DNA of 64,000 nucleotides from Oscillospiraceae bacterium (GTDB lineage: Bacteria; Bacillota; Clostridia; Oscillospirales; Oscillospiraceae). The position numbers and the translations under genes are program-made. The notes beneath the pieces are model-generated. The model did no database searches. It saw only the letters and a program-made list of their open reading frames with translations, and had not been told where the DNA came from. Position 1 is the stretch's first letter; the number at the start of each line of letters is the position of its first letter. The stretch spans positions 2,937 to 66,936 of the forward strand of contig JAFSJZ010000048.1 of NCBI GenBank assembly GCA_017449185.1. The letters run 5' to 3'. This document shows positions 1 through 52,625 of this stretch, one piece after another.

Positions 1-972
1 CTGGATATCTGGATGAAGGACTACTGCGGCGACAAGAAGTATTCGACTCTCAAGCACTATCGCGCGCTTGTCAATGCGCATATCAAACCGGAACTCGGCA
101 AGGTTGAGCTGGGAAAGCTGACCACTCCGGAAGTGCAGAAGTTTTATAACCGACTCATACAGCCTCCGGACGGCTCGCCGGGCATCTCACCCAAAACGGT
201 CAAAAACGCCCATGGCGTTTTGAGTAAAGCCATGGCTGTGGCGGTGGTAAGCGGCCATATCCGGCGCAATCCCTGCCAGGGAGCGATTCTGCCGCGGATC
301 GAGAAGCATGAGATCGAACCGCTGACGGACGATCAGGTCGCGCTGCTCCTGCAGATGGCCGAGCAGGACGAGGAATACGGTATCCTGCTGAAGGTGATCC
401 TGCTCACCGGCGTTCGAAAGGCAGAAGCACTGGGTATCACCTGGGACTGCGTGGATTTTAGGCGCGGCGTGATCCGCATCAACAAACAGCTGCAAAAGCG
501 CCCGATCCGCGACGGCGGCGTAGTGTTCGCGTCCCTGAAAAACGGCAAAGGCCGCACGCTGAAGCCGGCACCCTATGTGATGGAGCTGATGCGAAAGCAG
601 TATAATTTGCAGATCCGGCAGAGGGAAGACGCTTCCGCCGCCTGGAAAGGCTGGAATACGGAGGCGGAGCACCGGACCTCGCTGGCCTTTCTGACAGTCT
701 TCGGAACGCCGCTGCAGCCCCAGACCACGTCCAATCACTTCAAGAAGCTCGCCGCCGAGATCGGTGCACCAAATGCCCGAGTCCATGATCTGCGACACAC
801 CTATGCGGTGCTCTCGCTGCAGAACGGGGACGACGTGAAAACGGTGCAGGGAAACCTCGGCCATGCCACGGCGGCTTTTACACTGGACGTGTACGGTCAC
901 GTTTCCGACGCCATGAAGGCGGCCAGCGCGAGCCGGATGGAAGAATATGTGCGTCAGATCCCGGGCATATAA
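1..972 (+). CDS. Tyrosine-type site-specific integrase, 5'-truncated by the window edge
   Basis: The reading frame is open from base 1 (listed ORF 13..972). The C-terminal catalytic signature is present: GVRKAEAL (Arg box), HDLRHTYA, LGH, and YGH (catalytic Tyr). The gene ends 158 bp from the 3' end of a tRNA gene. Confidence 0.85.
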   Translation: MDIWMKDYCGDKKYSTLKHYRALVNAHIKPELGKVELGKLTTPEVQKFYNRLIQPPDGSPGISPKTVKNAHGVLSKAMAVAVVSGHIRRNPCQGAILPRIEKHEIEPLTDDQVALLLQMAEQDEEYGILLKVILLTGVRKAEALGITWDCVDFRRGVIRINKQLQKRPIRDGGVVFASLKNGKGRTLKPAPYVMELMRKQYNLQIRQREDASAAWKGWNTEAEHRTSLAFLTVFGTPLQPQTTSNHFKKLAAEIGAPNARVHDLRHTYAVLSLQNGDDVKTVQGNLGHATAAFTLDVYGHVSDAMKAASASRMEEYVRQIPGI

Positions 973-1130: not shown

Positions 1131-1204
1131 TGGCAGCGGGAGAAGGATTCGAACCCTCACATACGGAGTCAGAGTCCGCTGTGCTACCTTTACACAATCC
1201 CGCT
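1131..1204 (-). tRNA. tRNA-Gln (anticodon CUG), CCA encoded
   Basis: Manual cloverleaf of 74 nt. Acceptor AGCGGGA/TCCCGCT, D stem GTGT/GCAC, anticodon stem GCGGA/TCCGT with loop CTCTGAC, T arm GAGGG-TTCGAAT-CCTTC, discriminator G plus CCA. Confidence 0.85.
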
Positions 1205-10254: not shown

Positions 10255-11253
10255 CTAACCTCTGTACAGCATGTCGTGCGCCACGGGCGTATAGAAGCGC
10301 GCGGCGACCTCTTGCGGATCGCGCGTCTCGGCGAGGATCCACATGATCTTCGCCAGCGCCGCTTCCGTCGTCATGTCGTAGGCCTCCAGCACGCAGGGAT
10401 TCTCCTTGAGCCGGTGGCCGACGCTGTAGACGGACAGATCCGAACCCTCGTTCTGCACCTGCGTCGTGACGACAATGAATTTTCCCTCTGCCGTGCGGCG
10501 GCGGACGACCTCAAAGAGCGCGTCGTCGCTGTAGGAGGGCAGCCCTCCCACGCCGAAGCACTCCATGACCACGGCGTCCTTGCGCGCGAGCAGGAAATCC
10601 ATGAGCTCGACGTCCGTGCCGGGGATCATCTTGATCAGGCCCACGTTGGCGTCGAGCGCTGCGGAAAAGAGCGGCACTGGCTCGTACGCGCTCTCAATGT
10701 AGCACAGCAGCCTTCCGTCCTGCAGCGTGCCGATGTCGGGATAGTTGATGCTCGAGAAGGCCGTATAGCTTTTCGAGCAGGTCTTCCTTGCGCGGGTGCC
10801 GGTAATGACACGCCCCGAAAAGACGATGTTCACGCCGTGGATCTTCTCCGAGCAGGCGCAGACAAAGGCGTCGGCGAGGTTGATCTTCGAGTCGGTCGAA
10901 TCGAAGTTGATCGGCTTCTGCGCTCCGGTGAGGATGATGGGCTTTTTCGCCCCGCGCACAAGATAGGACAGCGCGGCGGCGGTGTAGGCCATCGTGTCCG
11001 TGCCGTGGGAGATGACAAAGCCGTCATAGTGCCCGTAATGCTCGCAGAGCGCGCCGGCCAGGCGCAGATAGTGCGCGGGCGTGATGTTCGTCGAGTCGAT
11101 GGAAAACAGGCTCAGACAGTCCACCTCGCACAGCGAGGAGATCGCGGGCACGGCGCGCAGCAGCTGCGCGGGCGTGAGGTCGGGACTAAGGCCCTCCGGC
11201 GTCATCGCCGAGGCGATCGTTCCGCCCGTACCGATCATCAGGATGCGTTTCAT
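10255..11253 (-). CDS. ansA: Type I L-asparaginase
   Basis: ILMIGTGGTIAS (catalytic Thr motif) and HGTDTMAYTAAAL. 332 aa. Confidence 0.9.
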   Translation of the reverse strand: MKRILMIGTGGTIASAMTPEGLSPDLTPAQLLRAVPAISSLCEVDCLSLFSIDSTNITPAHYLRLAGALCEHYGHYDGFVISHGTDTMAYTAAALSYLVRGAKKPIILTGAQKPINFDSTDSKINLADAFVCACSEKIHGVNIVFSGRVITGTRARKTCSKSYTAFSSINYPDIGTLQDGRLLCYIESAYEPVPLFSAALDANVGLIKMIPGTDVELMDFLLARKDAVVMECFGVGGLPSYSDDALFEVVRRRTAEGKFIVVTTQVQNEGSDLSVYSVGHRLKENPCVLEAYDMTTEAALAKIMWILAETRDPQEVAARFYTPVAHDMLYRG

Positions 11254-11268
11254 CTCTTTTCTCCCTCC

Positions 11269-12018
11269 TCAAAGCCGCCGCGCGAGCTCCAGCGCGAGCT
11301 GGAGCTTGTATGCGGCATGATTGGCCTCCTGCAGACCCTCGGGCGTGTACGCCTCGTCGGAAAAGCTGTCGCCGGTCTCCAGGAAGGCATAGAGCGAGAA
11401 GCCGTAAAAGTCGCAGACGGCCTGCACCCCGGCGATCTCCATCTCCACGGCGATGCAGCCCTCGGCGCGCCGCCGCGCGACCTGTCCGGACGTTTCGCGC
11501 AGAAAGGCGTCCGTCGTCCAGACGCGGCCCTCCGCGTAGGGGACGCCTTTTTCACGAAAGAACTCCGCGACCGTGCGGTGCCCGGGCACGGCGATATAGT
11601 CCGCCGGCGGGGCATAGTGATAGCTCATGCCCTCGTCGCGGTAGGCCTCGGTCGGCAGAACGTAGCGCCCGGCGGTCTTCTCCGCGTCCAGACTCCCGGC
11701 GGAGCCGAAGAGGATGAAGCGCGTCGCGCCGCAGATCCAGTTGGCCTCAATGCAGTACTGCGCCGCCATCGTCGAGCCGACGGGGGAGAGGTAAAAGGCC
11801 AGCGGCCTGCCGTCAAGATCAAAGCACCAGATCGGCGTCATGCCGTTGACCGAGCCGATCTCGCCGATCTGTCGGCAGGGGAAGCGCCCGAGAAGCTCGT
11901 CGTGGAGACGGCGCGAGAAGACGAGCAGACAGCGATCGGCTGTGTGCCTCTGTTCGCCGTAGAAGGCCTCGAGGCTGATCAGGGTTTTCGTTTGGTTGTC
12001 AAAGGAATCGGTGATCAT
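11269..12018 (-). CDS. Nucleoside phosphorylase-family protein (PNP/UDP family)
   Basis: Internal ATG at 12018 with a GGAGG RBS. LFGSAGSL and VEMEIAGV motifs typical of uridine/purine nucleoside phosphorylases. Confidence 0.8.
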   Translation of the reverse strand: MITDSFDNQTKTLISLEAFYGEQRHTADRCLLVFSRRLHDELLGRFPCRQIGEIGSVNGMTPIWCFDLDGRPLAFYLSPVGSTMAAQYCIEANWICGATRFILFGSAGSLDAEKTAGRYVLPTEAYRDEGMSYHYAPPADYIAVPGHRTVAEFFREKGVPYAEGRVWTTDAFLRETSGQVARRRAEGCIAVEMEIAGVQAVCDFYGFSLYAFLETGDSFSDEAYTPEGLQEANHAAYKLQLALELARRL

Positions 12019-12133
12019 GGGATCCTCCGGGTTGATGGTTGATCGTATTACATTAATTATAGCGCCAAAGCGCGGGAACTGCAACTTGAATCGAAGGCCC
12101 GAAGCAATCGGAAAAAGAAGAACAAAGGGAGCG

Positions 12134-12162
12134 TTGAAATTTGCGCAGATCGGTGATACAAT
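12134..12162 (+). promoter_or_regulatory. Sigma-A-like promoter of the VTC operon
   Basis: TTGAAA (12134..12139), 17-nt spacer, TACAAT (12157..12162). Confidence 0.55.
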
Positions 12163-12193
12163 AAATTGGTTAAATAGAGAAGGAGGCTGCGGG

Positions 12194-12916
12194 GTGGAAG
12201 AGACAAAACTGACCTTCAAGCGCTACGAGAAAAAATATCTTCTCTCCCACGAGCAGTACGAAAAGCTGTTCCGCGAGCTGGAGGATCATATCAAGCCCGA
12301 TCTCTACTTCCGCAGCGTCGTGTGCAGTCTCTATTACGACACCGACGACTATGCGCTCATCCGCCATTCCATCGACGCCCCGGTCTACAAGGAAAAGCTG
12401 CGGCTGCGCAGCTACGGCGTGCCCGGCCCGGAGGACGAGGTGTTCATCGAGCTGAAAAAGAAATACAAGGGCATGGTCTACAAGCGGCGCGTCGCCATGA
12501 GCGCGAAGGCCGCCGCGGCCTACCTCGCGGGCGAGACGCCGCCGCCCGAAGAATCGCAGATGACGCGCGAGCTCGACTGGTTCCTGCACGAAAACGCGGT
12601 AAAGCCCAAGGCCTACATCGCCTGCGACCGCACCGCCTGGGTCGCGAAGGACGACCCGGAACTGCGCATCACCTTCGACGAAAACCTGCGCTGGCGCGAG
12701 CACGATCTGGATCTCACCCTCGGCAGCGAGGGCGAGAGCCTGACCGAGCCGGGCTGTGTCCTCATGGAGATCAAGATTCCCGGCGTGTCGCCGCTGTGGC
12801 TGGCGCGTCTGCTCTCAGAACTGGAGCTCTTCCCTACGACCTTTTCCAAATACGGTACCTGTTATAAGGACCATATTCTCAGCGAATACTTTCATGGAGT
12901 GATCGAGTGTGTTTAA
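12194..12916 (+). CDS. VTC-domain (polyphosphate polymerase / triphosphate tunnel-like) protein
   Basis: GTG at 12194 lies 7 nt after AGGAGG. FKRYEKKYLL...YYDTDDYALIRHS...KEKLRLRSYG... matches bacterial VTC-domain proteins (family recalled, not searched). Confidence 0.8.
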   Translation: MEETKLTFKRYEKKYLLSHEQYEKLFRELEDHIKPDLYFRSVVCSLYYDTDDYALIRHSIDAPVYKEKLRLRSYGVPGPEDEVFIELKKKYKGMVYKRRVAMSAKAAAAYLAGETPPPEESQMTRELDWFLHENAVKPKAYIACDRTAWVAKDDPELRITFDENLRWREHDLDLTLGSEGESLTEPGCVLMEIKIPGVSPLWLARLLSELELFPTTFSKYGTCYKDHILSEYFHGVIECV

Positions 12917-23767: not shown

Positions 23768-23843
23768 TGGTGCTCCAGCGGGGATTCGAACCCCGGACAC
23801 CCTGCTTAAAAGGCAGGTGCTCTGCCTACTGAGCTACTGGGGC
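23768..23843 (-). tRNA. tRNA-Lys (anticodon UUU), CCA encoded
   Basis: Manual fold of 76 nt. Anticodon arm CCTGC-CTTTTAA-GCAGG, T arm CGGGG-TTCGAAT-CCCCG. The acceptor stem has one C:A mismatch at 3:70. Confidence 0.8.
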
Positions 23844-23846
23844 GGG

Positions 23847-23920
23847 TGGCTGGGATGGCGGGACTCGAACCCACTATATCGGAGTCAAAGTCCGGTGTGT
23901 TACCATTACACTACATCCCA
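23847..23920 (-). tRNA. tRNA-Gln (anticodon UUG), CCA encoded
   Basis: Acceptor TGGGATG/CATCCCA, loop containing CTTTGAC, T arm GTGGG-TTCGAGT-CCCGC, discriminator G. Confidence 0.85.
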
Positions 23921-23970
23921 AAGCTGTTATGAAAGAAACCGGCGGCCGCGGCCGCCGGCCTCTTTTTAAG

Positions 23971-24047
23971 TGGGGTGGGATATGGGGCTCGAACCCACGA
24001 CACCCGGAACCACAATCCGGTGCTCTGCCAACTGAGCTAATCCCACC
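23971..24047 (-). tRNA. tRNA-His (anticodon GUG) with encoded G-1, CCA encoded
   Basis: G-1 opposite C73. Anticodon arm CCGGA-TTGTGGT-TCCGG. T arm with TTCGAGC. Confidence 0.85.
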
Positions 24048-24213
24048 AAATCGTCCTCGCAAGCGCGAGGATTTTCCTTTTCACCGTCTAACCAAATCAA
24101 AGCCCGGCGAAGCGGGTTTGATTTGGAAAAGGAAGAAGGAACTGACGGATGTGCAGTTTTCGCGGCTCTTACGCAAACCGCGGAAACGGAACGCAGTCTG
24201 TTTCTTCTGACGC

Positions 24214-24290
24214 TGGCACGCCAAGAGGGATTCGAACCCCCGACCTATTGCTTAGAAGGCAATTGCTCTATCCTGCTGAGCTATTGGCGC
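24214..24290 (-). tRNA. tRNA-Arg (anticodon UCU), CCA encoded
   Basis: Anticodon arm ATTGC-CTTCTAA-GCAAT, acceptor GCGCCAA/TTGGCGT (G1:U72). Confidence 0.85.
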
Positions 24291-24326
24291 ATATCGATGC
24301 TGCCACTCAACTCCCAAAGCAAATAC

Positions 24327-24400
24327 TGGAGCGGGTGATGGGAATCGAACCCACGTATCCAGCTTGGAAGGCTGGTGTTCTACCATTGAACTACACCCGC
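24327..24400 (-). tRNA. tRNA-Gly (anticodon UCC), CCA encoded
   Basis: Acceptor GCGGGTG/CACCCGC, anticodon arm CCAGC-CTTCCAA-GCTGG. Confidence 0.85.
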
Positions 24401-39808: not shown

Positions 39809-39885
39809 GCGCCTTTAGCTCAGCTGGATAGAGCGTCTGGCTACGGACCAGAAGGTCAGGGGTTCGAATCCCTTAAGGCGTGCCA
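39809..39885 (+). tRNA. tRNA-Arg (anticodon ACG), CCA encoded
   Basis: Acceptor GCGCCTT/AAGGCGT (G1:U72), anticodon arm TCTGG-CTACGGA-CCAGA, T arm AGGGG-TTCGAAT-CCCTT. Confidence 0.85.
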
Positions 39886-40194: not shown

Positions 40195-41427
40195 TTACTG
40201 TACCGTAAGCATCGCTGTATCAGAGATTAGTTCTTTTCCGTCCAGGCCCATGATGACGCAACGGAATTCATAGCCGTTGAGGCGGCTTTCGGCCAATATG
40301 GTGCACTTAGTCCAATTGCTTCCGCTTGTGACCAATATGGTGTCGGGGATATTGCTCCAGTCAGATGTTCCGGGGGATCTGTACTGCCACTGTATTGTGT
40401 CAGCACCTCGTGCAGTTATATTGAAAACTGCGTTTTCGCCTTCTGCAACAGCAACGCTCTCAGGCTGAACCAAAATGGCGGAAAAGAAAGTTATCGTTGC
40501 CGTCTGACTTGCGAGTTTTTTCCCGTAGGCATTTGTGATCAAACACCGAAGCATCCAATGGTTCATATCCGCCGTTGCATGAATGATCAGTTGGCTCATC
40601 GTTGCCGATGTGGGGCCTGAAAGCTTATACCAGGTGGAGCCGCCGTCCTTGCTGAAGATCCATTGATAGGTCAGGCCTGTTCCCGATGCCTTGACCCTGA
40701 ATTCCAGGGTTCCTCCTCCGGGAAAAAACGTGTTTATACTATCTGGCTGTCTCGTAATATTCGGCAGCACCGTGAGCGTAGCTGGATTTGAGATGGATGA
40801 GCCGTTCTGACTCGTTACGATACAGCGGAACTGATAGTCGTTCATCGTATCACGGGCTTTGATGACCAGATGAGACGTCGCCGCGCTGCTGGCGTTTGTT
40901 AAATTGCTCCAGCTTTCGCCGTTGCTGCTGACCTGCCACTGATAGCGCAGATTCGAGCCCGTGGCACTGACTGTGAAACTTGTTTGGCAGGATTCATAAC
41001 CGCTGTGTGTTTTCGGATGCACGGTGATGCTGGGGCCCGTACCGGTCGTGTCGGACAAAACCGTCAGCGTTGACGCGCTGCTGGTCATCGTGTTCCCTTT
41101 GCTGTCCGATATCCTGCAGCGGAACTTCATGCCATTCATGCTTTCGCTTGCCGTGAGCCGCAAATTGGATGTTTTTGCGCTGGTTGCCCTGGTAATACTG
41201 GCCCAGACTTCGCCGCCGGGGCTTGACTCCCATTGATAGGTCAGCGTTCCGCTTCCGTTTGCGGTAACTGAAAACTGCGCGATGTTGCCTGCAAAAACGC
41301 TTGTTTGCGCAGCCGGCTGGCGGGAGATCGTGATGGAGTCGCTTGCCGCGTCGATGGGAGTCGGAAGAATCAGCAAGTATAACGCCAATAACGCCAACAG
41401 CAGCGCTGTTATTTTACGCAAACGCAT
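40195..41427 (-). CDS. Secreted protein with four tandem Ig-like repeats
   Basis: Signal peptide. Four units of about 90 aa, each with Q-P...F.V.A.G..L.YQW......W..........L.I......N...F.C......G......A.LTV. AT-richer than the flanks. Confidence 0.75.
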   Translation of the reverse strand: MRLRKITALLLALLALYLLILPTPIDAASDSITISRQPAAQTSVFAGNIAQFSVTANGSGTLTYQWESSPGGEVWASITRATSAKTSNLRLTASESMNGMKFRCRISDSKGNTMTSSASTLTVLSDTTGTGPSITVHPKTHSGYESCQTSFTVSATGSNLRYQWQVSSNGESWSNLTNASSAATSHLVIKARDTMNDYQFRCIVTSQNGSSISNPATLTVLPNITRQPDSINTFFPGGGTLEFRVKASGTGLTYQWIFSKDGGSTWYKLSGPTSATMSQLIIHATADMNHWMLRCLITNAYGKKLASQTATITFFSAILVQPESVAVAEGENAVFNITARGADTIQWQYRSPGTSDWSNIPDTILVTSGSNWTKCTILAESRLNGYEFRCVIMGLDGKELISDTAMLTVQ

Positions 41428-45379: not shown

Positions 45380-45408
45380 TTGACAGATTTCCCTTGTTCC
45401 TGTATGAT
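45380..45408 (+). promoter_or_regulatory. Sigma-A promoter (extended -10) of the tat-flavoprotein-nrfA-ccs operon
   Basis: TTGACA (45380..45385), 17-nt spacer, TG-TATGAT (45401..45408). Confidence 0.6.
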
Positions 45409-45470
45409 AATTGTGTACGTTTATATCTGTTTCATGGCTTTTTTATCTGATTCCGGAGGAAGAAAACGCA

Positions 45471-45761
45471 ATGAAGATCGGCGCGCTGGAACTTATCGTC
45501 GTGTTCATCGTGGCCCTGCTCGTGATCGGGCCGGACAAGCTGCCGCAGTATGCCAGGAAATTCGGCGCCGCCATGCGGGAATTCCGCAAGGCCTCTCAGG
45601 ACGTGACGCAGGAGATCCGCGAGAGCGTGATCGATCCGCTCGAGGAGGCGCAGAAGCCCCTGAAGGATGCGATAGAGCCGATCGAAGAGCTGGAAAAGGG
45701 CTTGAAGGACGACGTGAAGAGCGTTGAAAAAGACCTCAGAGATCTCGGGAAAGCCAAATAA
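45471..45761 (+). CDS. tatA: Twin-arginine translocase TatA/TatB-family protein
   Basis: GGAGGA RBS. Has the TM helix + G-P + amphipathic helix layout of TatA/B: MKIGALELIVVFIVALLVIGPDKLP. Confidence 0.85.
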   Translation: MKIGALELIVVFIVALLVIGPDKLPQYARKFGAAMREFRKASQDVTQEIRESVIDPLEEAQKPLKDAIEPIEELEKGLKDDVKSVEKDLRDLGKAK

Positions 45762-45782
45762 ACGGAGCGGAGGAAAAACAGT

Positions 45783-46013
45783 ATGAGAATCGGAACACAG
45801 GAGCTTATCATCATCCTGATCGTCGTCATCATCATTTTCGGACCCACGCAGATCCCCAAGCTGACGAAGATGTTCGGCAAGAGCGTGAAAAGCTTCAAGG
45901 ACGGCATGGAAGAGGTCGTCTCCGGCGACGCGCCGGAAGAGGACAAGGAACAGAAGCCGCAAAAGGCCAAGGCCGTAAAGGAGGCCGAGGCTGCCGATGA
46001 AGACGAAAGCTGA
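45783..46013 (+). CDS. tatA: Twin-arginine translocase TatA/E-family protein
   Basis: MRIGTQELIIILIVVIIIFGPTQIPKLTKMFGKSVKSFK. Confidence 0.9.
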   Translation: MRIGTQELIIILIVVIIIFGPTQIPKLTKMFGKSVKSFKDGMEEVVSGDAPEEDKEQKPQKAKAVKEAEAADEDES

Positions 46014-46755
46014 CGCCGCTTCCCCCAATCCGGACGGGAGCATGACGCTCTCCGGCCACCTGCGGGAGCTGCGCCGCCGCATCCTGGTGTGCGTCGTGCT
46101 GCTGCTCGTCGTGTTCGGCGTCTGTCTGGCCTTCGCCCCGCGCATCGTCACACTGCTGACCGACATGGGCACGCGCTACGCCTACGTCTACGTGTACATC
46201 GCCCCGCAGGAGCTGCTGCTGGTCTATCTCAACGTCGCCCTCGTCGCGGCGCTGATGCTCTGCTTCCCCGTGCTGGCCTACGAGGCCTACGCCTTCTGCA
46301 GCCCGGGGCTGAAAGCGAAGGAGCGGCGCTATACGATCGGCGCGCTCTTTGCCGGAACGCTCTGTTTCCTGCTCGGCGCGGCCTTCGCGTACTTTATCAG
46401 TCTGCCCTTCATGCTGCGCTTTCTGATTCAGTTCACCGCGGACGTGGACGTTGCGGCGTCCATCAGCATCGACCAGTACGTCAGCTTTTTGCTGACGGTG
46501 TTCATCATTTTCGGCCTCGTGTTCGAACTGCCGGTCGTCTCCGTGCTGCTGACGGCGCTGGGCGTCATTCAGCCGGCCTGGCTCGTGAAGGGGCGGCGCG
46601 TGATGATCGTCGTGATCTTCTTCCTGGCTGCCGTCATCACCCCGCCGGACGTGGTCTCCCAGATCATGCTGGCCCTGCCGATGATGGCGCTCTACGAGCT
46701 GAGCATCCTGCTCAGCCGCGCGGTCGGACGGGCAAAGGCGCAGGCCGCGGCATAG
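45997..46755 (+). CDS. tatC: Twin-arginine translocase subunit TatC
   Basis: HLRELRRRIL N-terminal motif, six TM segments, 252 aa. Confidence 0.9.
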   Translation: MKTKADAASPNPDGSMTLSGHLRELRRRILVCVVLLLVVFGVCLAFAPRIVTLLTDMGTRYAYVYVYIAPQELLLVYLNVALVAALMLCFPVLAYEAYAFCSPGLKAKERRYTIGALFAGTLCFLLGAAFAYFISLPFMLRFLIQFTADVDVAASISIDQYVSFLLTVFIIFGLVFELPVVSVLLTALGVIQPAWLVKGRRVMIVVIFFLAAVITPPDVVSQIMLALPMMALYELSILLSRAVGRAKAQAAA

Positions 46756-46825: not shown

Positions 46826-48868
46826 ATGGCAAACAAAGAGCTTTCCCGCAGAGACTTTCTCAAAGGCATGGCTGCGGGTGCCGTGGGGATGGCCACGATG
46901 GGCGTCCTGAGCGGCTGCGGCGAGGCCGCGACCGCGAGCGCGCCCGCCGCCGCAACGGAGGCGCCTGTCGCCGCCGCGGCAGCCGCAGAGGCCATCTACA
47001 CCCCCGGTACATACTCCGCAGCCGCAAAAGGCATTGCCAGCGACGTCAAGGTCACGATGACCTTCAGCGAGACCGCCATCACCGACTGCAAGATCGACGT
47101 CTCCGGCGAAACCAAGGACATCGGCGGCAAGATCGGCCCCGCGATGGAGCAGGCCGTTCTGGACGCCCAAAGCCCCGATGTCGACGCCGTCTCCGGCGCG
47201 ACCGTCACTTCCGACGCGATCAAAAAAGCCGTGGCCGACTGTATTTCCCAGGCCAGCGGCAAGGACGTCACGGTCGCGCAGACCGTCGTCGCCAGCGCCG
47301 ACTGGCTGGGCGAGGCTCCGGCCATCTCCGAGGGCGACATCACCGAGACCCTCGACACCGAGGTGCTCGTCGTCGGCTGCGGCACCGGCGGCATCATGGC
47401 CACAATGACCGCTGCCGAGGAAGGCGCGAAGGTCCTTGTGATCGAAAAGCGCGAGACCCCGACCGGCATCCGCGAGGACATCGGCTCGATCAACTCCAGA
47501 CTCCAGCTCGAGAGCTTCGCCGAGTATCCCGAGTTCGAGATCGACAAGGACGAGGCCCTGCATGAGCTTGTGCGCTACGCGGGCGGCTATGTGGATTCCG
47601 ACCTCATCAAGGTCTGGATCGACAATTCCGGCGAGCTGGTCGACTGGCTGACGGACCTCATGGAGTCCACCGGCGACTGGTACATGAGCCTGGAGGGCGG
47701 CATCGGCCAGCCCGAGTTCTACAAGGCCTATGCCACCGGCCACAGCCCCCACAAGACCGCGCAGGGCACGGAGAAGGGCGTCACCACCACCTCGACCTTC
47801 CGCGACTTCTGCGACAAGACCGGCAACGTCGACTGGCGCTTCCAGACCTCTCTCATCAAGCTCGAGCAGACCTCCGACGGAAAGGTCACGGGCGTCATCG
47901 CACAGGACGCGACCGACGGCCACTATCTGCGCATCAACGCCTCCAAGGGCGTCATCATGGCCACCGGCGGCTACGCCACCAACACACAGATGATGCTGGC
48001 CCTCCAGCCCCAGACCATGAAGATGAAAGCCAACGTTCCCATCGGCTCGACCGACGACGGCTCCGGCATCAAGGCGATGCTCTGGGCGGGCGCCGAGCTC
48101 GACCCGACCCACGCCTCCATGATGTTCAACCGCTGCTCCGTCAAGCCCGACGAGACCGCCGGCTACCAGACCAACGGCAAGTGGTACTGGTTCGGCGAGC
48201 AGCCCTTCCTGAAGGTCAATCTCAATGGCAAGCGCTTCTGCAACGAGTCCGGCCCCTACGAGCATATGCTGCACTCGATGTACATGCAGCCCAACCACAC
48301 CTACTGCGATATCTTCGACTCCAACTGCAAGAAATACGCCGAGCAGTTCGACGAGGTCGGCTGCTGCCGCCTCTTCGCCTTCCCGAACGGAGCCGAGAGC
48401 AACATGCCCTTCGATTACGTCTGGGGCCAGATGACCGAAGGCGAGAACTCCCACCTTGCGCTGGGCTATCTGCAGAAGGCCGACACGCTCGACGAGCTGG
48501 CCGAGAAGCTGAACATCCCGGTCGACGCCTTCAAGGAGACCGTCTGGCGCTACAACACCTTCTGCGCCAGAGGCCTGGACGAGGATTACGGCAAGCCCGA
48601 GCACCGTCTCACGCCGGTGGACACGCCGCCCTTCTACGGCATCCGCACCTGCGCCTGGCATCTGACCACGCTCAACGGCTGCCGCATCAACACCGACATG
48701 CAGGTCATCCGTGAGGACGGCACGCCCATCGAGGGCCTCTACGCCACGGGCGACTGCACCGGCGGCTTCTTTGCCCAGACCTATCCGAACCTCTTCACCG
48801 GCCTCGCCTGCGGCCGTACGATGACCTTCGGCCGCCGCGCGGCCAAGAAGGTCTGCGCGAAGAGATAA
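46826..48868 (+). CDS. Tat-signal lipoprotein flavoenzyme: FMN_bind domain plus FAD_binding_2 (fumarate/urocanate-reductase-like) domain
   Basis: SRRDFLKG twin-arginine motif, lipobox LSGC, flavinylation-type motif DAVSGATVTS (SGAT at 47192..47203), VVGCGTGGIMA dinucleotide fold, C-terminal YATGDCTGG. Confidence 0.85.
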   Translation: MANKELSRRDFLKGMAAGAVGMATMGVLSGCGEAATASAPAAATEAPVAAAAAAEAIYTPGTYSAAAKGIASDVKVTMTFSETAITDCKIDVSGETKDIGGKIGPAMEQAVLDAQSPDVDAVSGATVTSDAIKKAVADCISQASGKDVTVAQTVVASADWLGEAPAISEGDITETLDTEVLVVGCGTGGIMATMTAAEEGAKVLVIEKRETPTGIREDIGSINSRLQLESFAEYPEFEIDKDEALHELVRYAGGYVDSDLIKVWIDNSGELVDWLTDLMESTGDWYMSLEGGIGQPEFYKAYATGHSPHKTAQGTEKGVTTTSTFRDFCDKTGNVDWRFQTSLIKLEQTSDGKVTGVIAQDATDGHYLRINASKGVIMATGGYATNTQMMLALQPQTMKMKANVPIGSTDDGSGIKAMLWAGAELDPTHASMMFNRCSVKPDETAGYQTNGKWYWFGEQPFLKVNLNGKRFCNESGPYEHMLHSMYMQPNHTYCDIFDSNCKKYAEQFDEVGCCRLFAFPNGAESNMPFDYVWGQMTEGENSHLALGYLQKADTLDELAEKLNIPVDAFKETVWRYNTFCARGLDEDYGKPEHRLTPVDTPPFYGIRTCAWHLTTLNGCRINTDMQVIREDGTPIEGLYATGDCTGGFFAQTYPNLFTGLACGRTMTFGRRAAKKVCAKR

Positions 48869-48919
48869 GCGCACGCATCCACGGCTGCAAGAAAACGTGA
48901 ATGAATGCAGGAGAGGATT

Positions 48920-50530
48920 ATGAACGCTAAACTGAAACAAAAAAGGCTTGCCGACATCATCGGCATCGCCTGCGGCGTGTTCGTGCTGCTCGTCGGCATC
49001 GTGACCGGCATCGTCAAGAGCCGGCCCGCCACCGTCGGCGCGAACGCCGGGGATATCCCTGCCAGCGCCCAGCATCTGACGGGCACGGCCGAGGGACGCA
49101 ACGGCCCCATCACGGTCGAGATCATCGCGGACGAGAGCCAGATCTATCAGATCAACGTCGTCAGCCACACCGAGACCGACGGCATCGGCACCGTCGCGGT
49201 CGAAAAGCTCCCCGCCTCGATCTACGAGGCGCAGAGCCTGGAGGTCGACAGCGTCTCCGGCGCGACCCTGAGCTCCGACGGCATCAAGGCGGCGGTGCTC
49301 AACGCGATGGAGAGCGGCGGTCTTTCGACCGACAGCTTCGGCGGGGCCGAAGTCGCCGCGGCGGCCTCCGCGCCCGTCAAACTGGCCGAAAAGGTCGAGA
49401 CCAACTCCGGCGTCACGGTGCTGCATGCTTCCGACTGGGCCGCGCAGTACCCCAACGAGTACAACACCTGGCTGATGACCTCCGAGAGCTCCGAAGCCGA
49501 GGATTATCTCGAGATCTACCCGATGCTCCGCACCCTCTACGAGGGCTACGGCTTCGCCATCGACTACAAGGCGGCGCGCGGACATTACTACGACGTCGAG
49601 GATATCGAGGCCACCGGCCGTCCCCATCCGATGGCCAACTGCTGGACCTGCAAGACGCCCGACTTCACGAACATGGTCAACGAGGAGGGCATCGAGGCCT
49701 ACAAGTACGCCTGGACCGACGTCCAGGGCCAGGTCGTCGAGGGCATCAGCTGCTACAACTGCCACGGAAACGATCCGACGACGATCACGATCACCCACAC
49801 CTACTGGATCGACGCGCTGGGCGACGATTTCGAGAATGTCGCGGCGGCGAATCTCGCCTGCGGCCAGTGCCACAACGAGTACTACTTTGCGCCCGACACC
49901 AAGGCGACCACGATCGCTCACGACAGCCTCGAGAGCATGGATCCCGCAACGATGCTGGCCTACTTCAACGACGGGGCAAACTTCTCCAACGGCGAGATGT
50001 TCGCCGACTGGACGAATCCCCGCACCGGCGTCAAGCAGATCAAGGTCCAGCACCCCGAGTTCGAGACCTTCCTCGGCAAGGGCAGCCAGCACGCCAATGA
50101 TTTCACCTGCGCCGACTGCCACATGCCCGAAGCCACGGCCGAGGACGGGACTGTGTATATGAGCCACAACATCATCAGCCCCCTGGATAACGAGGAGCTG
50201 ATCGAAAACACCTGCTCGCAGTGCCACTACAACCTGGTCGAAGAGGTGCAGAAGACGCAGCAGGCGGTCGAGCAGCGCACCTATGCCGTCGGCTATCAGC
50301 TGGAGTATCTCACCGAGCTCCTGGCCAACGCAGTGGCGAGCGGCGAGTACACCGACGCCGACCTCGCGCAGATCCGCATGCTCGCCCGCAACGCCCAGTT
50401 CTACTGGGACTTCGTGTTCGTGGAGAACGCCGAGGGCGCGCACAACCCGACGCTGACCTACGAGTGCCTTGACAAGGCGGAATCCCTCTGCTCCCAGGCG
50501 ATCACCCTGATCCTGAAGCTGACCGCGTAA
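48920..50530 (+). CDS. nrfA: FMN_bind-domain::NrfA (pentahaem cytochrome c552 nitrite reductase) fusion, membrane-anchored
   Basis: N-terminal TM anchor and FMN_bind-like domain with DSVSGATLSS (SGAT at 49256..49267). Haem motifs are CWTCK (Lys-ligated active-site haem, 49640..49654), CYNCH, CGQCH, CADCH and CSQCH. Confidence 0.85.
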   Translation: MNAKLKQKRLADIIGIACGVFVLLVGIVTGIVKSRPATVGANAGDIPASAQHLTGTAEGRNGPITVEIIADESQIYQINVVSHTETDGIGTVAVEKLPASIYEAQSLEVDSVSGATLSSDGIKAAVLNAMESGGLSTDSFGGAEVAAAASAPVKLAEKVETNSGVTVLHASDWAAQYPNEYNTWLMTSESSEAEDYLEIYPMLRTLYEGYGFAIDYKAARGHYYDVEDIEATGRPHPMANCWTCKTPDFTNMVNEEGIEAYKYAWTDVQGQVVEGISCYNCHGNDPTTITITHTYWIDALGDDFENVAAANLACGQCHNEYYFAPDTKATTIAHDSLESMDPATMLAYFNDGANFSNGEMFADWTNPRTGVKQIKVQHPEFETFLGKGSQHANDFTCADCHMPEATAEDGTVYMSHNIISPLDNEELIENTCSQCHYNLVEEVQKTQQAVEQRTYAVGYQLEYLTELLANAVASGEYTDADLAQIRMLARNAQFYWDFVFVENAEGAHNPTLTYECLDKAESLCSQAITLILKLTA

Positions 50531-50613: not shown

Positions 50614-51831
50614 ATGAAACAAATTCTGCGTCTTCTTCGCTCGATGCGTTTTGCCAATATCCTGCTTGCGCTCGTCGCGCTTTTGTGCGGCGTGAGTTCG
50701 CTGCTGCCTCAGGGCAACGAACTGGCCTACTACGCGCAGAACTATCCGCGCCTCTATCCGCTTATCTACCGCGCGCAGCTCTACGACGTGTTCCGCAGCT
50801 GGTATTTCATCCTGCTTGTCGCACTGCTGAGCCTGAGCATGCTCGCATGCACGGCCTCCATGCTGCGCCGCGCGCTGCGCTCGGGCAGGGGAGCGGTCGA
50901 AAAAGCCGCCGCCCTCCCGAATGCCGAAGCGCTCGACGCTGCAGGGCTGGAAAAGCTGCGGCTTTATCTGGCCTCGATCCGCTGCAAAGAGGAGAAGATC
51001 GGGCAGAGCTTTGTCTTCCACAAAAATGGCTTTGGCCGCTGGGGGACCTTTCTGATCCATCTCTCGATCCTGCTGACGATCGCTTTCGGCGCGATGGCAC
51101 TGTACCTGCCGCAGGTGACAGACCGGAGCTGCTGGCCGGGCGAGACGCTCACGCTGGAGGACGGGACGCAGATCGCGGTGGATTCCTTCTCCATGTACAA
51201 CGCGGAGGGGCAGCTCGATTATGCCAGCGTGATCCGCATCACGCTGCCCGACGGGAGGAGCGCCGGCCCGCAGGAGATCCGCGTGAACTATCCGATGACC
51301 TTCGGCAAGTACAAGGTCTTTCAGTGGAGCTACGGGGCGGGAGGCGCCGTCTCCGCGCGCAGCCTCTCCACCGGCGGAACAGACCGTTTTACCTCTCTTG
51401 ACAGCGGCAGCGTCCTTTCAATCGACGAGAAGAATCTGATCGAATTTCTGGGCGTCTATGAGGCGACGCCCACGGACGGGAGCGAAGAAAAGTTCGTATT
51501 CTATCAGGTGCGCACCGTGCGCGACGGCGTCTATGAGGATGCCGCGGAATACCGCCCGGGCGAAAGCGTCACGCTCGGGGACGTGGAGTTCACCTTCCTC
51601 GACCCCTATTATCCCGGCCTGCGCATCAAGACCCTGCCCGTCCGCGCGGCCAATTCGCTGCTTGAGGCGGCCTTTGTGCTGATGCTCGTCGGGCTGTTTA
51701 TCTGCTTCTATCTCCAGCCCGTGCTGGTCAAGGCGGACGAGAAGGGCTATACCGTCGCCGGACCGCGTGCGGAAAAGCTGCGGCTGGAGCTGCGGGGCAG
51801 ACTGGCCGGGGAGAAGGAGGCGCAGACATGA
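50614..51831 (+). CDS. resB: Cytochrome c biogenesis protein ResB/Ccs1 (System II)
   Basis: 405 aa with an N-terminal TM cluster, a large extracytoplasmic domain and a C-terminal TM. It overlaps ccsA (ATGA). Confidence 0.8.
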   Translation: MKQILRLLRSMRFANILLALVALLCGVSSLLPQGNELAYYAQNYPRLYPLIYRAQLYDVFRSWYFILLVALLSLSMLACTASMLRRALRSGRGAVEKAAALPNAEALDAAGLEKLRLYLASIRCKEEKIGQSFVFHKNGFGRWGTFLIHLSILLTIAFGAMALYLPQVTDRSCWPGETLTLEDGTQIAVDSFSMYNAEGQLDYASVIRITLPDGRSAGPQEIRVNYPMTFGKYKVFQWSYGAGGAVSARSLSTGGTDRFTSLDSGSVLSIDEKNLIEFLGVYEATPTDGSEEKFVFYQVRTVRDGVYEDAAEYRPGESVTLGDVEFTFLDPYYPGLRIKTLPVRAANSLLEAAFVLMLVGLFICFYLQPVLVKADEKGYTVAGPRAEKLRLELRGRLAGEKEAQT

Positions 51832-52625
51832 CGATGACGACGCTGTTTTATATATCCCTCGGCCTCTACGCCGCCGCGCTTCTCGTCGAGCTTGCGGGCG
51901 TGGCCGTGAAACGGGACAAATGGAAAAACCTGGCCTGGTGGGTCTTCGTGCTCGCGCTGCTGACGCACCTGGGCTATTTCGTCTGGCGCGGCCTTGTCGC
52001 GCAGCGTCTGCCGCTCTCGAGCCAGTTTGAGTTTTCCTGCGGCTTTGCGCTGGGCGTGTCGCTGCTGCTGCTCGTGGCGCGCACGCGCCTGAGCGCCGAC
52101 TGGATCGCCGCCGCGGGCATGGCCGCCGTCACGCTGCTGATGGTCTATGCCTCCCGCCAGAAGATGGAGATCAGCGAGCTGATGCCCGCCCTGCGCAGCT
52201 TCTGGTTCGACTTCCATATCGGCGCCGCGGTCTTCTCCTACGCCGCCTTCCTGGTGGCCGGCTGCGTCAGCCTGCGCTATGTGCTGCAGCACCGGAAAGG
52301 CGAGGCCCCGGACAGCCTGAAGATGAAAAAGCTCGAGTACCTCAGCTATCGCCTGGTGGCGCTGGGCTTCCTGCTGCTCACGGCGGTGATCGTCATCGGC
52401 GCGATCTGGGCCGAGGCCGCCTGGTCGGCCTACTGGACCTGGGACCCCAAGGAGGTCTGGGCGCTCATTACCTGGATCATCTACGCGGTGTATCTCCACA
52501 TCCGCCTGCGGCGGCAGTACAGCGACCTGTTTCTGAGCTGGTACGTGATCCTTGCGATCCCGGCCTTCCTCTTTACCTTCGCCGGCGTCAACAAGCTGCT
52601 GCCTGGCCTGCATTCCTACGCATGA
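51828..52625 (+). CDS. ccsA: Cytochrome c biogenesis protein CcsA/ResC (System II)
   Basis: Trp-rich haem-handling motif WAEAAWSAYWTWDPKEVWALITW. Confidence 0.9.
   Translation: MTMTTLFYISLGLYAAALLVELAGVAVKRDKWKNLAWWVFVLALLTHLGYFVWRGLVAQRLPLSSQFEFSCGFALGVSLLLLVARTRLSADWIAAAGMAAVTLLMVYASRQKMEISELMPALRSFWFDFHIGAAVFSYAAFLVAGCVSLRYVLQHRKGEAPDSLKMKKLEYLSYRLVALGFLLLTAVIVIGAIWAEAAWSAYWTWDPKEVWALITWIIYAVYLHIRLRRQYSDLFLSWYVILAIPAFLFTFAGVNKLLPGLHSYA

Follow-up and report, generated by a model that had tools for sequence, protein, structure and literature searches.

To our knowledge, every characterized NrfA nitrite reductase draws electrons from the quinol pool via a cytochrome partner, which is either NrfH or NrfB together with NrfCD. 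Other extracytosolic reductases are wired to the membrane by a flavin. FMN_bind domains with the motif D-x-x-[S/T]-G-A-[S/T] link FrdA/UrdA-type reductases to membrane electron transport (PMC8238504, PMC12052999), a covalently flavinylated FMN_bind domain feeds an extracytosolic N-oxide or organohalide reductase in the NosR/NosZ and PceC systems (PMC8238504), and the interchange of flavins and cytochromes is documented for fumarate reductases (PMC8238504). The latter paper (Meheust et al. 2021, eLife, Fig. 6H) contains one sentence on a multihaem RnfG from Christensenellales; its haem domain is not called a nitrite reductase there, and a generic cytochrome-based role in electron transfer is proposed. 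Here, we analyzed a 64,000-nucleotide stretch from an Oscillospiraceae bacterium (assembly GCA_017449185.1, contig JAFSJZ010000048.1, positions 2,937 to 66,936 of the forward strand), which is referred to as the window, and in particular a gene in it that joins a membrane anchor and an FMN_bind domain to NrfA. No description of an FMN_bind-NrfA fusion was found in the literature searched, which included supplements in part, the nearest being the sentence mentioned above (PMC8238504). Known already is thus a multihaem RnfG mentioned in passing; new would be a flavin domain wired to the nitrite reductase NrfA. Our analysis suggests that in this membrane-tethered, predicted flavinylated NrfA a flavin arm probably replaces NrfH or NrfB as the point of electron entry, with Rnf as the likeliest donor.

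The gene was found in a single unbroken open reading frame (ORF) on the plus strand (48905..50530), corresponding to 541 amino acids from the first open start. As a Shine-Dalgarno sequence (GGAGAGG, 48910-48916) lies upstream of the ATG at 48920 and the alignment of homologues begins at the methionine of this codon, translation most likely starts there and yields a protein of 536 amino acids. Pfam domain limits and the limits of matches to solved structures were counted on the 541-residue version, and the residue numbers of the helix, linker, motifs, and single sites refer to the 536-residue version. The GC content at third codon positions (GC3) was 0.90 and matched that of the neighbor genes, i.e., codon bias was uniform. 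No record with a sequence identical to that of the window protein was found. A first-pass annotation, made from the letters alone, had read the gene as a fusion, with a signal anchor and an FMN_bind domain at the N-terminus and an Ala-rich linker that leads into a complete pentahaem core. This reading held in all its parts: the frame is unbroken and recurs in independent assemblies, the peptides GRNGPITVEII, VSHTETDGIG, and DSVSGATLSSDGIKAAV were all found in the translation, the Ala-rich linker is present between the FMN_bind domain and the NrfA core, and the order of the modules was confirmed, with an N-terminal transmembrane anchor, FMN_bind, a linker of ∼35 residues, and a complete NrfA core in one polypeptide (Table 1).

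The N-terminal hydrophobic stretch IIGIACGVFVLLVGIVTGIV (residues 13-32) had a mean Kyte-Doolittle hydropathy of 2.7 and was preceded by KLKQKR, making the N-flank of the helix the more basic side. An AlphaFold2 model of the fused protein, which included no cofactors and was of moderate quality (mean predicted local distance difference test [pLDDT] score of 74), placed a helix at residues 2-39. The segment is predicted to be a signal anchor with N-in/C-out orientation, in agreement with the first-pass assignment of residues ∼1-35. The haem domain would have to lie outside the membrane, because haem attachment by System II requires this location. A cleavable signal peptide was considered as well; however, the nearest AXA-like site lies at least 10 residues past the helix, so that a signal anchor is more likely. 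Within the transmembrane anchor, Cys18 (48971..48973; C23 in alignment numbering) was nearly invariant in the family. A lipoprotein reading of this residue was rejected, as the Cys is buried in the hydrophobic helix of 20 residues and a lipobox at this site would have Gly at position -3.

The assignment of the second module to FMN_bind was borne out by a profile match at residues 64-136 (57.2 bits versus a gathering score of 22). The domain also matched domain 1 of CbFMN4 (PDB 8p2b), a crystallized FMN domain with covalent flavin, both by sequence (E value of 9.6e-11) and in a Foldseek comparison of the AlphaFold2 model (template modeling [TM] score of 0.82 to 0.87; root mean square deviation of 1.3 to 1.9 Å). 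The motif of the flavin transferase ApbE is D-x-x-[S/T]-G-A-[S/T], with FMN going on its last residue (PMC12052999), and an exact match, DSVSGAT, is present around the SGAT that the first-pass annotation had pointed out. Its Asp, Gly, Ala, and Thr were invariant across 27 homologues (58 to 90% identity), as were many core residues of the domain over the same range of identity. In contrast, the RnfG model TIGR01947 scored only 20.7 bits (cutoff of 102) against the window protein, the match being confined to the FMN-domain portion of TIGR01947, and the domain was 34% identical to the FMN_bind domain of the flavoprotein reductase encoded next to it. By sequence, the window domain is therefore classed as the reductase/multi-FMN type and not as the RnfG type. 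The linker that follows had pLDDT values below 50 at residues 152-158 and varied in length among aligned homologues; the mature forms of non-fused relatives start at the equivalent of KVETNSGV.

The remaining part of the protein matched Cytochrom_C552 over residues 177-539 (260.6 bits versus a gathering score of 24.1). CWTCK and the four CXXCH motifs were located exactly where the first-pass annotation had placed them, in canonical NrfA order, and aligned to the motifs of the Escherichia coli and Shewanella oneidensis enzymes. CYNCH marks haem 2, through which electrons enter NrfA in the known complexes. The catalytic residues R220, Y321, and H378, the haem ligand K245, and the Ca-site residues E320, K375, and Q377 were all kept and invariant in the 27 homologues; we take R106, E215, Y216, K261, Q263, and H264 of E. 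coli NrfA to be the counterparts of R220, E320, Y321, K375, Q377, and H378, respectively. The best sequence matches in the PDB were the NrfA proteins of S. oneidensis and E. coli (E value of about 2e-47). Foldseek of the model against E. coli NrfA gave an E value of 1e-15 with TM scores of 0.66 to 0.68; the top matches were all NrfA (E values of 1e-15 to 1e-10, target TM scores of 0.6 to 0.68), and for the core region only NrfA and octahaem nitrite reductases were returned. Scores for the NrfA equivalogs of NCBIfam were far below the cutoffs (NF008339, 226.3 versus 595 bits; TIGR03152, 186.3 versus 692.5 bits), and the core is therefore assigned, on sequence grounds, to a divergent NrfA subfamily with ∼30% identity to solved NrfAs. 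Judged by residue content, it is predicted to be catalytically complete, so the proposed complete core with a Lys-ligated CWTCK haem found support from the PF02335 profile, the five motifs, and the catalytic and Ca residues. Solved matching NrfA structures aligned only within the core (query residues 147-540), and none of them has a flavin domain, as expected from the earlier remark on the NrfA proteins of E. coli, Wolinella, and Desulfovibrio.

To judge how widespread the fusion is, as the first-pass annotation had suggested, 5.8 billion proteins were searched, and the architecture was read for the best 120 of 1,299 matches (57 to 91% identity). A single FMN_bind domain plus NrfA was present in 109 of these 120 homologue clusters, while six had two FMN_bind domains, two had three, and three had none, the latter comprising two fragments and one anchor-only form (P0105). 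Among species-representative genomes, 310 loci with relatives were found, and ∼53 of the best 79 that were inspected carried the fusion. The flavinylation motif did not vary across the fused clusters and loci. The fused loci came nearly all from metagenome-assembled genomes (MAGs) of the rumen or gut of goat, sheep, cattle, buffalo, deer, and chicken and were labeled Oscillospiraceae, Ruminococcaceae, Candidatus Limivicinus, or Clostridia. The fusion is thus common, with its flavin part unnamed: the database name, where given, reads only [quoted passage not shown] The fusion is a real one and is maintained by selection. In a rough neighbor-joining tree of NrfA cores, fused forms made up one large clade, with non-fused outgroups (Christensenella-like, Lachnospiraceae, and Coriobacteriia). 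A search with the N-terminal module for a free-standing anchored flavoprotein partner gave seven short proteins; the two examined were broken fusion genes, explained by a scaffold N-gap (L083) and a contig end (L084), and this candidate was dropped. In variants with several FMN_bind domains (P0010, P0012, P0044, P0047, P0049, P0051, and P0052), the first domain carries S-[A/S/T]-A-T and the later domains are canonical; the first tandem domain may not be flavinylated in these proteins.

The genes around nrfA were compared by clustering the neighbors in 82 loci, a noisy comparison with long antisense ORFs in high-GC DNA. ResB and CcsB were the only widely recurring neighbor clusters, and the resB/ccsB pair followed nrfA in the related Clostridia loci examined, fused and non-fused. 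In the window, the System II pair is complete, both ResB and CcsB being encoded beside the fused nrfA, with ccsB overlapping resB by 4 nucleotides. No multihaem ORF (at least two CXXCH) besides nrfA was found within 10 kb of any of 53 fused loci. Likewise, no second ORF with at least two CXXCH was present in the whole 64-kb window, and none of its 49 called genes, all of which were scanned with Pfam, belonged to the nrfH or nrfBCD families. The non-fused Eggerthellaceae loci L072 to L079, however, had a membrane-anchored ORF with three CXXCH directly after nrfA, which matched Cytochrom_c3_2 in the two loci scanned (L073 and L075); the search was therefore able to reveal an NrfH-type partner if present. 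Non-fused Clostridia NrfA proteins that carry either a signal peptide or a lipoprotein signal (L036, L039, L041 to L044, L058 to L062, L066 to L068, and L071) had only resB-ccsB as neighbors and no nrfH. Genes for ApbE were sought locally with phmmer and hidden Markov models from an approximate seed sequence; with this seed, neither the window nor any fused locus gave a match, and putative matches were limited to L069 and L079 (Coriobacteriia). In L069, from a Coriobacteriaceae MAG, the putative apbE homologue (11239..12669, minus strand; approximate seed) adjoins a non-fused nrfA and has a gene for a protein with eight transmembrane helices on its other side, an arrangement that hints at flavin supply of NrfA without fusion.

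When 1.84 billion cluster representatives were searched exhaustively, further and more distant fusions came to light, at 35 to 55% identity. Several of these had two or three N-terminal FMN_bind domains, P0150 had two C-terminal FMN_bind domains on NrfA, and P0133 had an N-terminus that was RnfG-like as judged by eye. A 724-residue protein encoded in L046 (9329..11503; Oscillospiraceae MAG RUI382, P0131 cluster) consists of RnfG, a second FMN_bind domain, and NrfA, its RnfG part being full length (TIGR01947, 133.8 bits versus a cutoff of 102, residues 9-173). No rnf operon adjoins this gene, which has resB-ccsB downstream of it, and its product could be an alternative RnfG that plugs NrfA straight into Rnf. 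In five of five distant lineages (P0152, P0138, P0144, the P0137/P0277 cluster, and P0143), the fused gene directly followed rnfB, in the operon order rnfC-rnfDG-rnfE-rnfA-rnfB-[FMN_bind(n)-nrfA]-resB-ccsB. Moreover, L087 has an FMN_bind-FAD_binding_2 reductase gene just before rnfC, which echoes the pairing in the window; the occurrence of such a flavoprotein reductase beside the fused nrfA in one case and beside rnf in the other is consistent with a shared electron supply. In L040 and L064, rnfCDGEAB was found ∼3 kb from the cassette, a proximity compatible with chance, since by a rough estimate ∼0.4 such loci are expected among 53. In one multi-FMN NrfA from an rnf operon (L085, 4626..7790; P0152), CLTCN replaces CXXCK and an extra C-terminal FMN_bind-like domain is present; the replacement could be a true ligand change or a sequence error.

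A built-in electron entry point, as first proposed for this protein, is favored because of the absence of an adjacent NrfH gene, the invariant flavinylation motif, the RnfG and multi-FMN fusions, and the rnf operons of relatives; it is an interpretation backed by genomic context. In this scheme, the N-terminal helix would hold the protein at the outer surface of the cytoplasmic membrane. ApbE, for which the window has no gene, would act outside the cell and bind FMN covalently to Thr116, and the ResB and CcsB proteins encoded next door would attach the haems, including that of CXXCK. Positioned between flexible segments of ∼20 to 35 residues on each side, the flavin domain would shuttle electrons, i.e., collect them at the membrane surface and hand them over singly to an exposed NrfA haem, and haem 1 would finally carry out the six-electron reduction of nitrite to ammonium. 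The likeliest membrane donor would be Rnf via its outward-facing flavin subunit, and another flavin-based extracytosolic module is possible. Covalent FMN in such domains has a sufficiently low potential and delivers single electrons, and transfer to haems and nitrite (E0′ of ∼+340 mV) is downhill. Covalent flavinylation, the direction and route of the electrons, and the donor in this organism are all inferred. The full sequence of events, a quinone- and NrfH-independent nitrite ammonification in uncultured gut and rumen Clostridia that runs from the Rnf flavin via a swinging flavin arm to NrfA, is put forward as a tentative proposal.

Several observations weigh against a flavin-fed NrfA with Rnf as its donor. 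None of the 49 window genes belonged by Pfam to apbE, rnf, DUF4405, PepSY, MsrQ, NapH, or any other membrane module known to be associated with flavinylation. Apart from rnf in L040 and L064, the named families were likewise not found within 10 kb of the fused loci of Oscillospiraceae. As the FMN_bind domain of the window is not of the RnfG type, the link to Rnf is carried over from relatives of only 35 to 55% identity. Furthermore, the structural model is of moderate quality only. Finally, non-fused forms nested within the fused clade of the rough tree, namely, a signal-peptide group (L036, L039, and L041 to L044) and others, such as L055 and L056; in L055 and P0105, the anchor is kept and the flavin domain is absent. 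Their nesting points to secondary loss of the flavin domain. Since no nrfH was found near the nested non-fused forms either, NrfA in these bacteria can be supplied without a fused flavin domain.

The donor might be a different one: a quinol- or NADH-dependent extracellular-electron-transfer (EET) module, or free flavin shuttles, could feed the flavin domain in place of Rnf, which we regard as rather unlikely overall. Most Oscillospiraceae fused loci have no rnf nearby, and the window domain is similar to the N-terminal FMN_bind domains found in multi-FMN proteins (8p2b match) and in extracytosolic flavoprotein reductases (34% identity to that of its neighbor) and not to RnfG. In addition, FMN_bind reductases of Listeria are fed by an EET apparatus (PMC8238504), and a DUF4405 cytochrome b has been described from a published apbE-DUF4405 cluster of Oscillospiraceae (PMC11334425). 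On the other hand, no such module was detected in the window or the 53 fused loci, and Rnf was the sole membrane redox complex found to be linked, by operon or by fusion, to FMN_bind-NrfA.

The function of the enzyme could also differ from that of a respiratory ammonifier, in that it might serve detoxification or act as a non-energy-conserving sink for nitrite, NO, hydroxylamine, or sulfite, an option to which we give only a limited chance. NO, hydroxylamine, and sulfite are further substrates of NrfA enzymes, no obvious coupling site is contained in the cassette itself, and the neighboring arcA, ornithine carbamoyltransferase, and argS genes give no respiratory context; the divergence of the subfamily (NCBIfam scores of 226 versus 595 and 186 versus 692.5) would fit as well. 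In contrast, the active site of a nitrite reductase and the Ca site are complete and invariant, and the placement in rnf operons of relatives points to energy-conserving electron transport. Both roles are not mutually exclusive.

It is improbable that FMN_bind is a non-redox spacer or degenerate remnant and that NrfA is fed otherwise. Loss of the domain in nested relatives (signal-peptide forms L036 and L041; anchor-only forms L055 and P0105) and the S-[A/S/T]-A-T in place of S-G-A-T in the first domain of multi-domain variants would be in line with a dispensable module, but D-x-x-S-G-A-T and many core residues are invariant over 58 to 90% identity, and independent duplication of the domain, its relocation to the C-terminus, and its replacement by a full RnfG are hard to square with a passive role. 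An artefactual joining of two genes, by misassembly or a frameshift, can practically be dismissed: there are split-looking entries (P0121 and P0123) and overlapping frames (L025 and L026), but the split entries are themselves artefacts (N-gap in L083, contig end in L084), and the fusion recurs as a single ORF in ∼53 species-level genomes and in over 100 clusters, which stem from independent assemblies, with the window ORF being unbroken and uniform in codon bias.

On the plus strand of the window, the order of genes is tatA-tatA-tatC, flavoprotein reductase, fused nrfA, resB, ccsB, argS, arcA, and the ornithine carbamoyltransferase gene (Table 1). A promoter-like site (45380-45408) lies ahead of the first tatA, and a bidirectional terminator is also present upstream. 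The flavoprotein reductase is fumarate-reductase-like, has a Tat signal (SRRDFLK) and a lipobox (LSGC), and gave vinyl phenol reductase as its best NCBIfam match, far under the cutoff; it is predicted to be a second ApbE substrate in the window, and the Tat genes would serve it. A homologue was present upstream in 6 of 53 fused loci, whereas the gene was inverted in L082 and absent in L080; on account of this variable placement, the reductase is considered a separate unit, though a recurrent neighbor. The presence of SpoIIR in the window indicates a spore-forming Firmicute. Elsewhere, an Ig-like secreted protein of 410 amino acids with approximately four repeats of ∼95 residues is encoded (40195..41427, minus strand) in an island of low GC content (0.49, compared to a window value of ∼0.62) that adjoins a tRNA gene (39809-39882) and may have been horizontally acquired. 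A phage-type integrase gene (13..972, plus strand) beside a tRNA gene (1134..1204, minus strand) at the window edge may mark the boundary of an integrated element. Five tRNA genes are clustered at 23771..24400 (minus strand) inside a 2.7-kb stretch without called protein genes.

Table 1. Features of the fused nrfA gene and its neighbors (positions in the 64,000-nucleotide window; residue numbers on the 536-residue version)
Feature	Position	Strand	Evidence or remark
Fused anchor/FMN_bind/linker/NrfA gene	48920..50530	+	536 aa; frame open from 48905
Single transmembrane helix, residues 13-32	48956..49015	+	Hydropathy; Lys/Arg-rich N-terminus before it
FMN_bind (PF04205)	49094..49312	+	Pfam E value 2.8e-15
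ApbE flavinylation motif DSVSGAT, residues 110-116	49247..49267	+	Exact motif match; Thr116 predicted FMN site
Ala/Gly-rich flexible linker, residues 132-166	49313..49417	+	Low model confidence, variable length
Pentahaem NrfA core (PF02335)	49418..50527	+	Pfam E value 3.7e-77
CWTCK, active-site haem 1, Lys proximal ligand (K245)	49640..49654	+	Aligns to CWSCK of E. coli NrfA; invariant in family
CYNCH, haem 2 motif	49751..49765	+	Alignment to solved NrfA
CGQCHNEY, haem 3 motif and Glu320/Tyr321	49859..49882	+	Aligned to 1gu6; invariant; CGQCH itself 49859..49873
K375-V-Q377-H378, Ca ligands and catalytic His	50042..50053	+	Alignment
CADCH, haem 4 motif	50108..50122	+	Motif scan
CSQCH, haem 5 motif	50213..50227	+	Motif scan
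resB-like (System II cytochrome c biogenesis)	50614..51831	+	PF05140 E value 9.7e-32
ccsB (System II haem-handling subunit)	51828..52625	+	PF01578 E value 1.2e-36; TIGR03144 194 bits versus 187.6
Tat-exported FMN_bind and FAD_binding_2 flavoprotein reductase	46826..48868	+	Pfam TAT_signal, FMN_bind, FAD_binding_2
tatA, tatA, tatC	45411..46755	+	Pfam; upstream of flavoprotein reductase

If a flavin arm indeed feeds NrfA, nitrite ammonification would have a second, mechanistically different drive, and the interchangeability of flavins and cytochromes as extracytosolic wires would also hold for a nitrogen-cycle haem enzyme. A large guild of uncultured ruminant and gut Oscillospiraceae would join the known nitrite reducers, which would bear on nitrate feeding in methane mitigation, on the toxicity of nitrite to ruminants, and on how nitrite is turned over in the gut. 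With Rnf as the donor, the assembly would amount to a ferredoxin/NADH:nitrite oxidoreductase, perhaps one that keeps the ion translocation of Rnf and thereby offers a new way of energy conservation from nitrite. As database names omit the flavin domain, metagenomic surveys miss this special wiring.

Compared to the NrfHA systems of Wolinella succinogenes and Desulfovibrio vulgaris and the NrfABCD system of E. coli, the window protein shares the family, the CXXCK and other haem motifs, the Arg/Tyr/His triad, the Ca site, and the fold. The predicted location on the outer side of the membrane and the presence of haem-attachment genes beside nrfA are also common to them. In contrast to these systems, no NrfH, NrfB, or NrfCD gene lies nearby in the window locus; the catalytic subunit is itself anchored, carries an N-terminal flavin domain, and scores under the NCBIfam equivalog cutoffs. 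Moreover, one ResB/CcsB pair must handle both CXXCH and CXXCK, as no NrfI or NrfEFG-type lyase was seen. In NosR and PceC, the flavin domain belongs to a polytopic Fe-S membrane protein (NapH-like) that is separate from the reductase, whereas the window has no NapH-like gene. The multihaem RnfG of Meheust et al. is probably of the same class as the rnf-operon forms L085 to L089 and the RnfG-NrfA of L046; the window protein differs from it in its single non-RnfG FMN_bind domain, its position outside an rnf operon, and its origin from Oscillospiraceae. An N-terminal ApbE-type FMN_bind domain on an extracytosolic reductase is likewise found in FrdA of Listeria monocytogenes, UrdA of Shewanella, and the fumarate reductase of Klebsiella. 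In the window protein, however, the catalytic module is a pentahaem cytochrome and not FAD_binding_2, so that the proposed route would lead from flavin via haems to an inorganic substrate, compared to flavin via flavin to an organic substrate in the FrdA/UrdA-type reductases. FccA of Shewanella similarly combines haem c and flavin modules in a single polypeptide, as an extracytosolic reductase wired to the membrane, and the window protein appears as its mirror image: FccA uses its haems as the wire and its flavin as the active site, whereas here the flavin would be the wire and a haem the active site.

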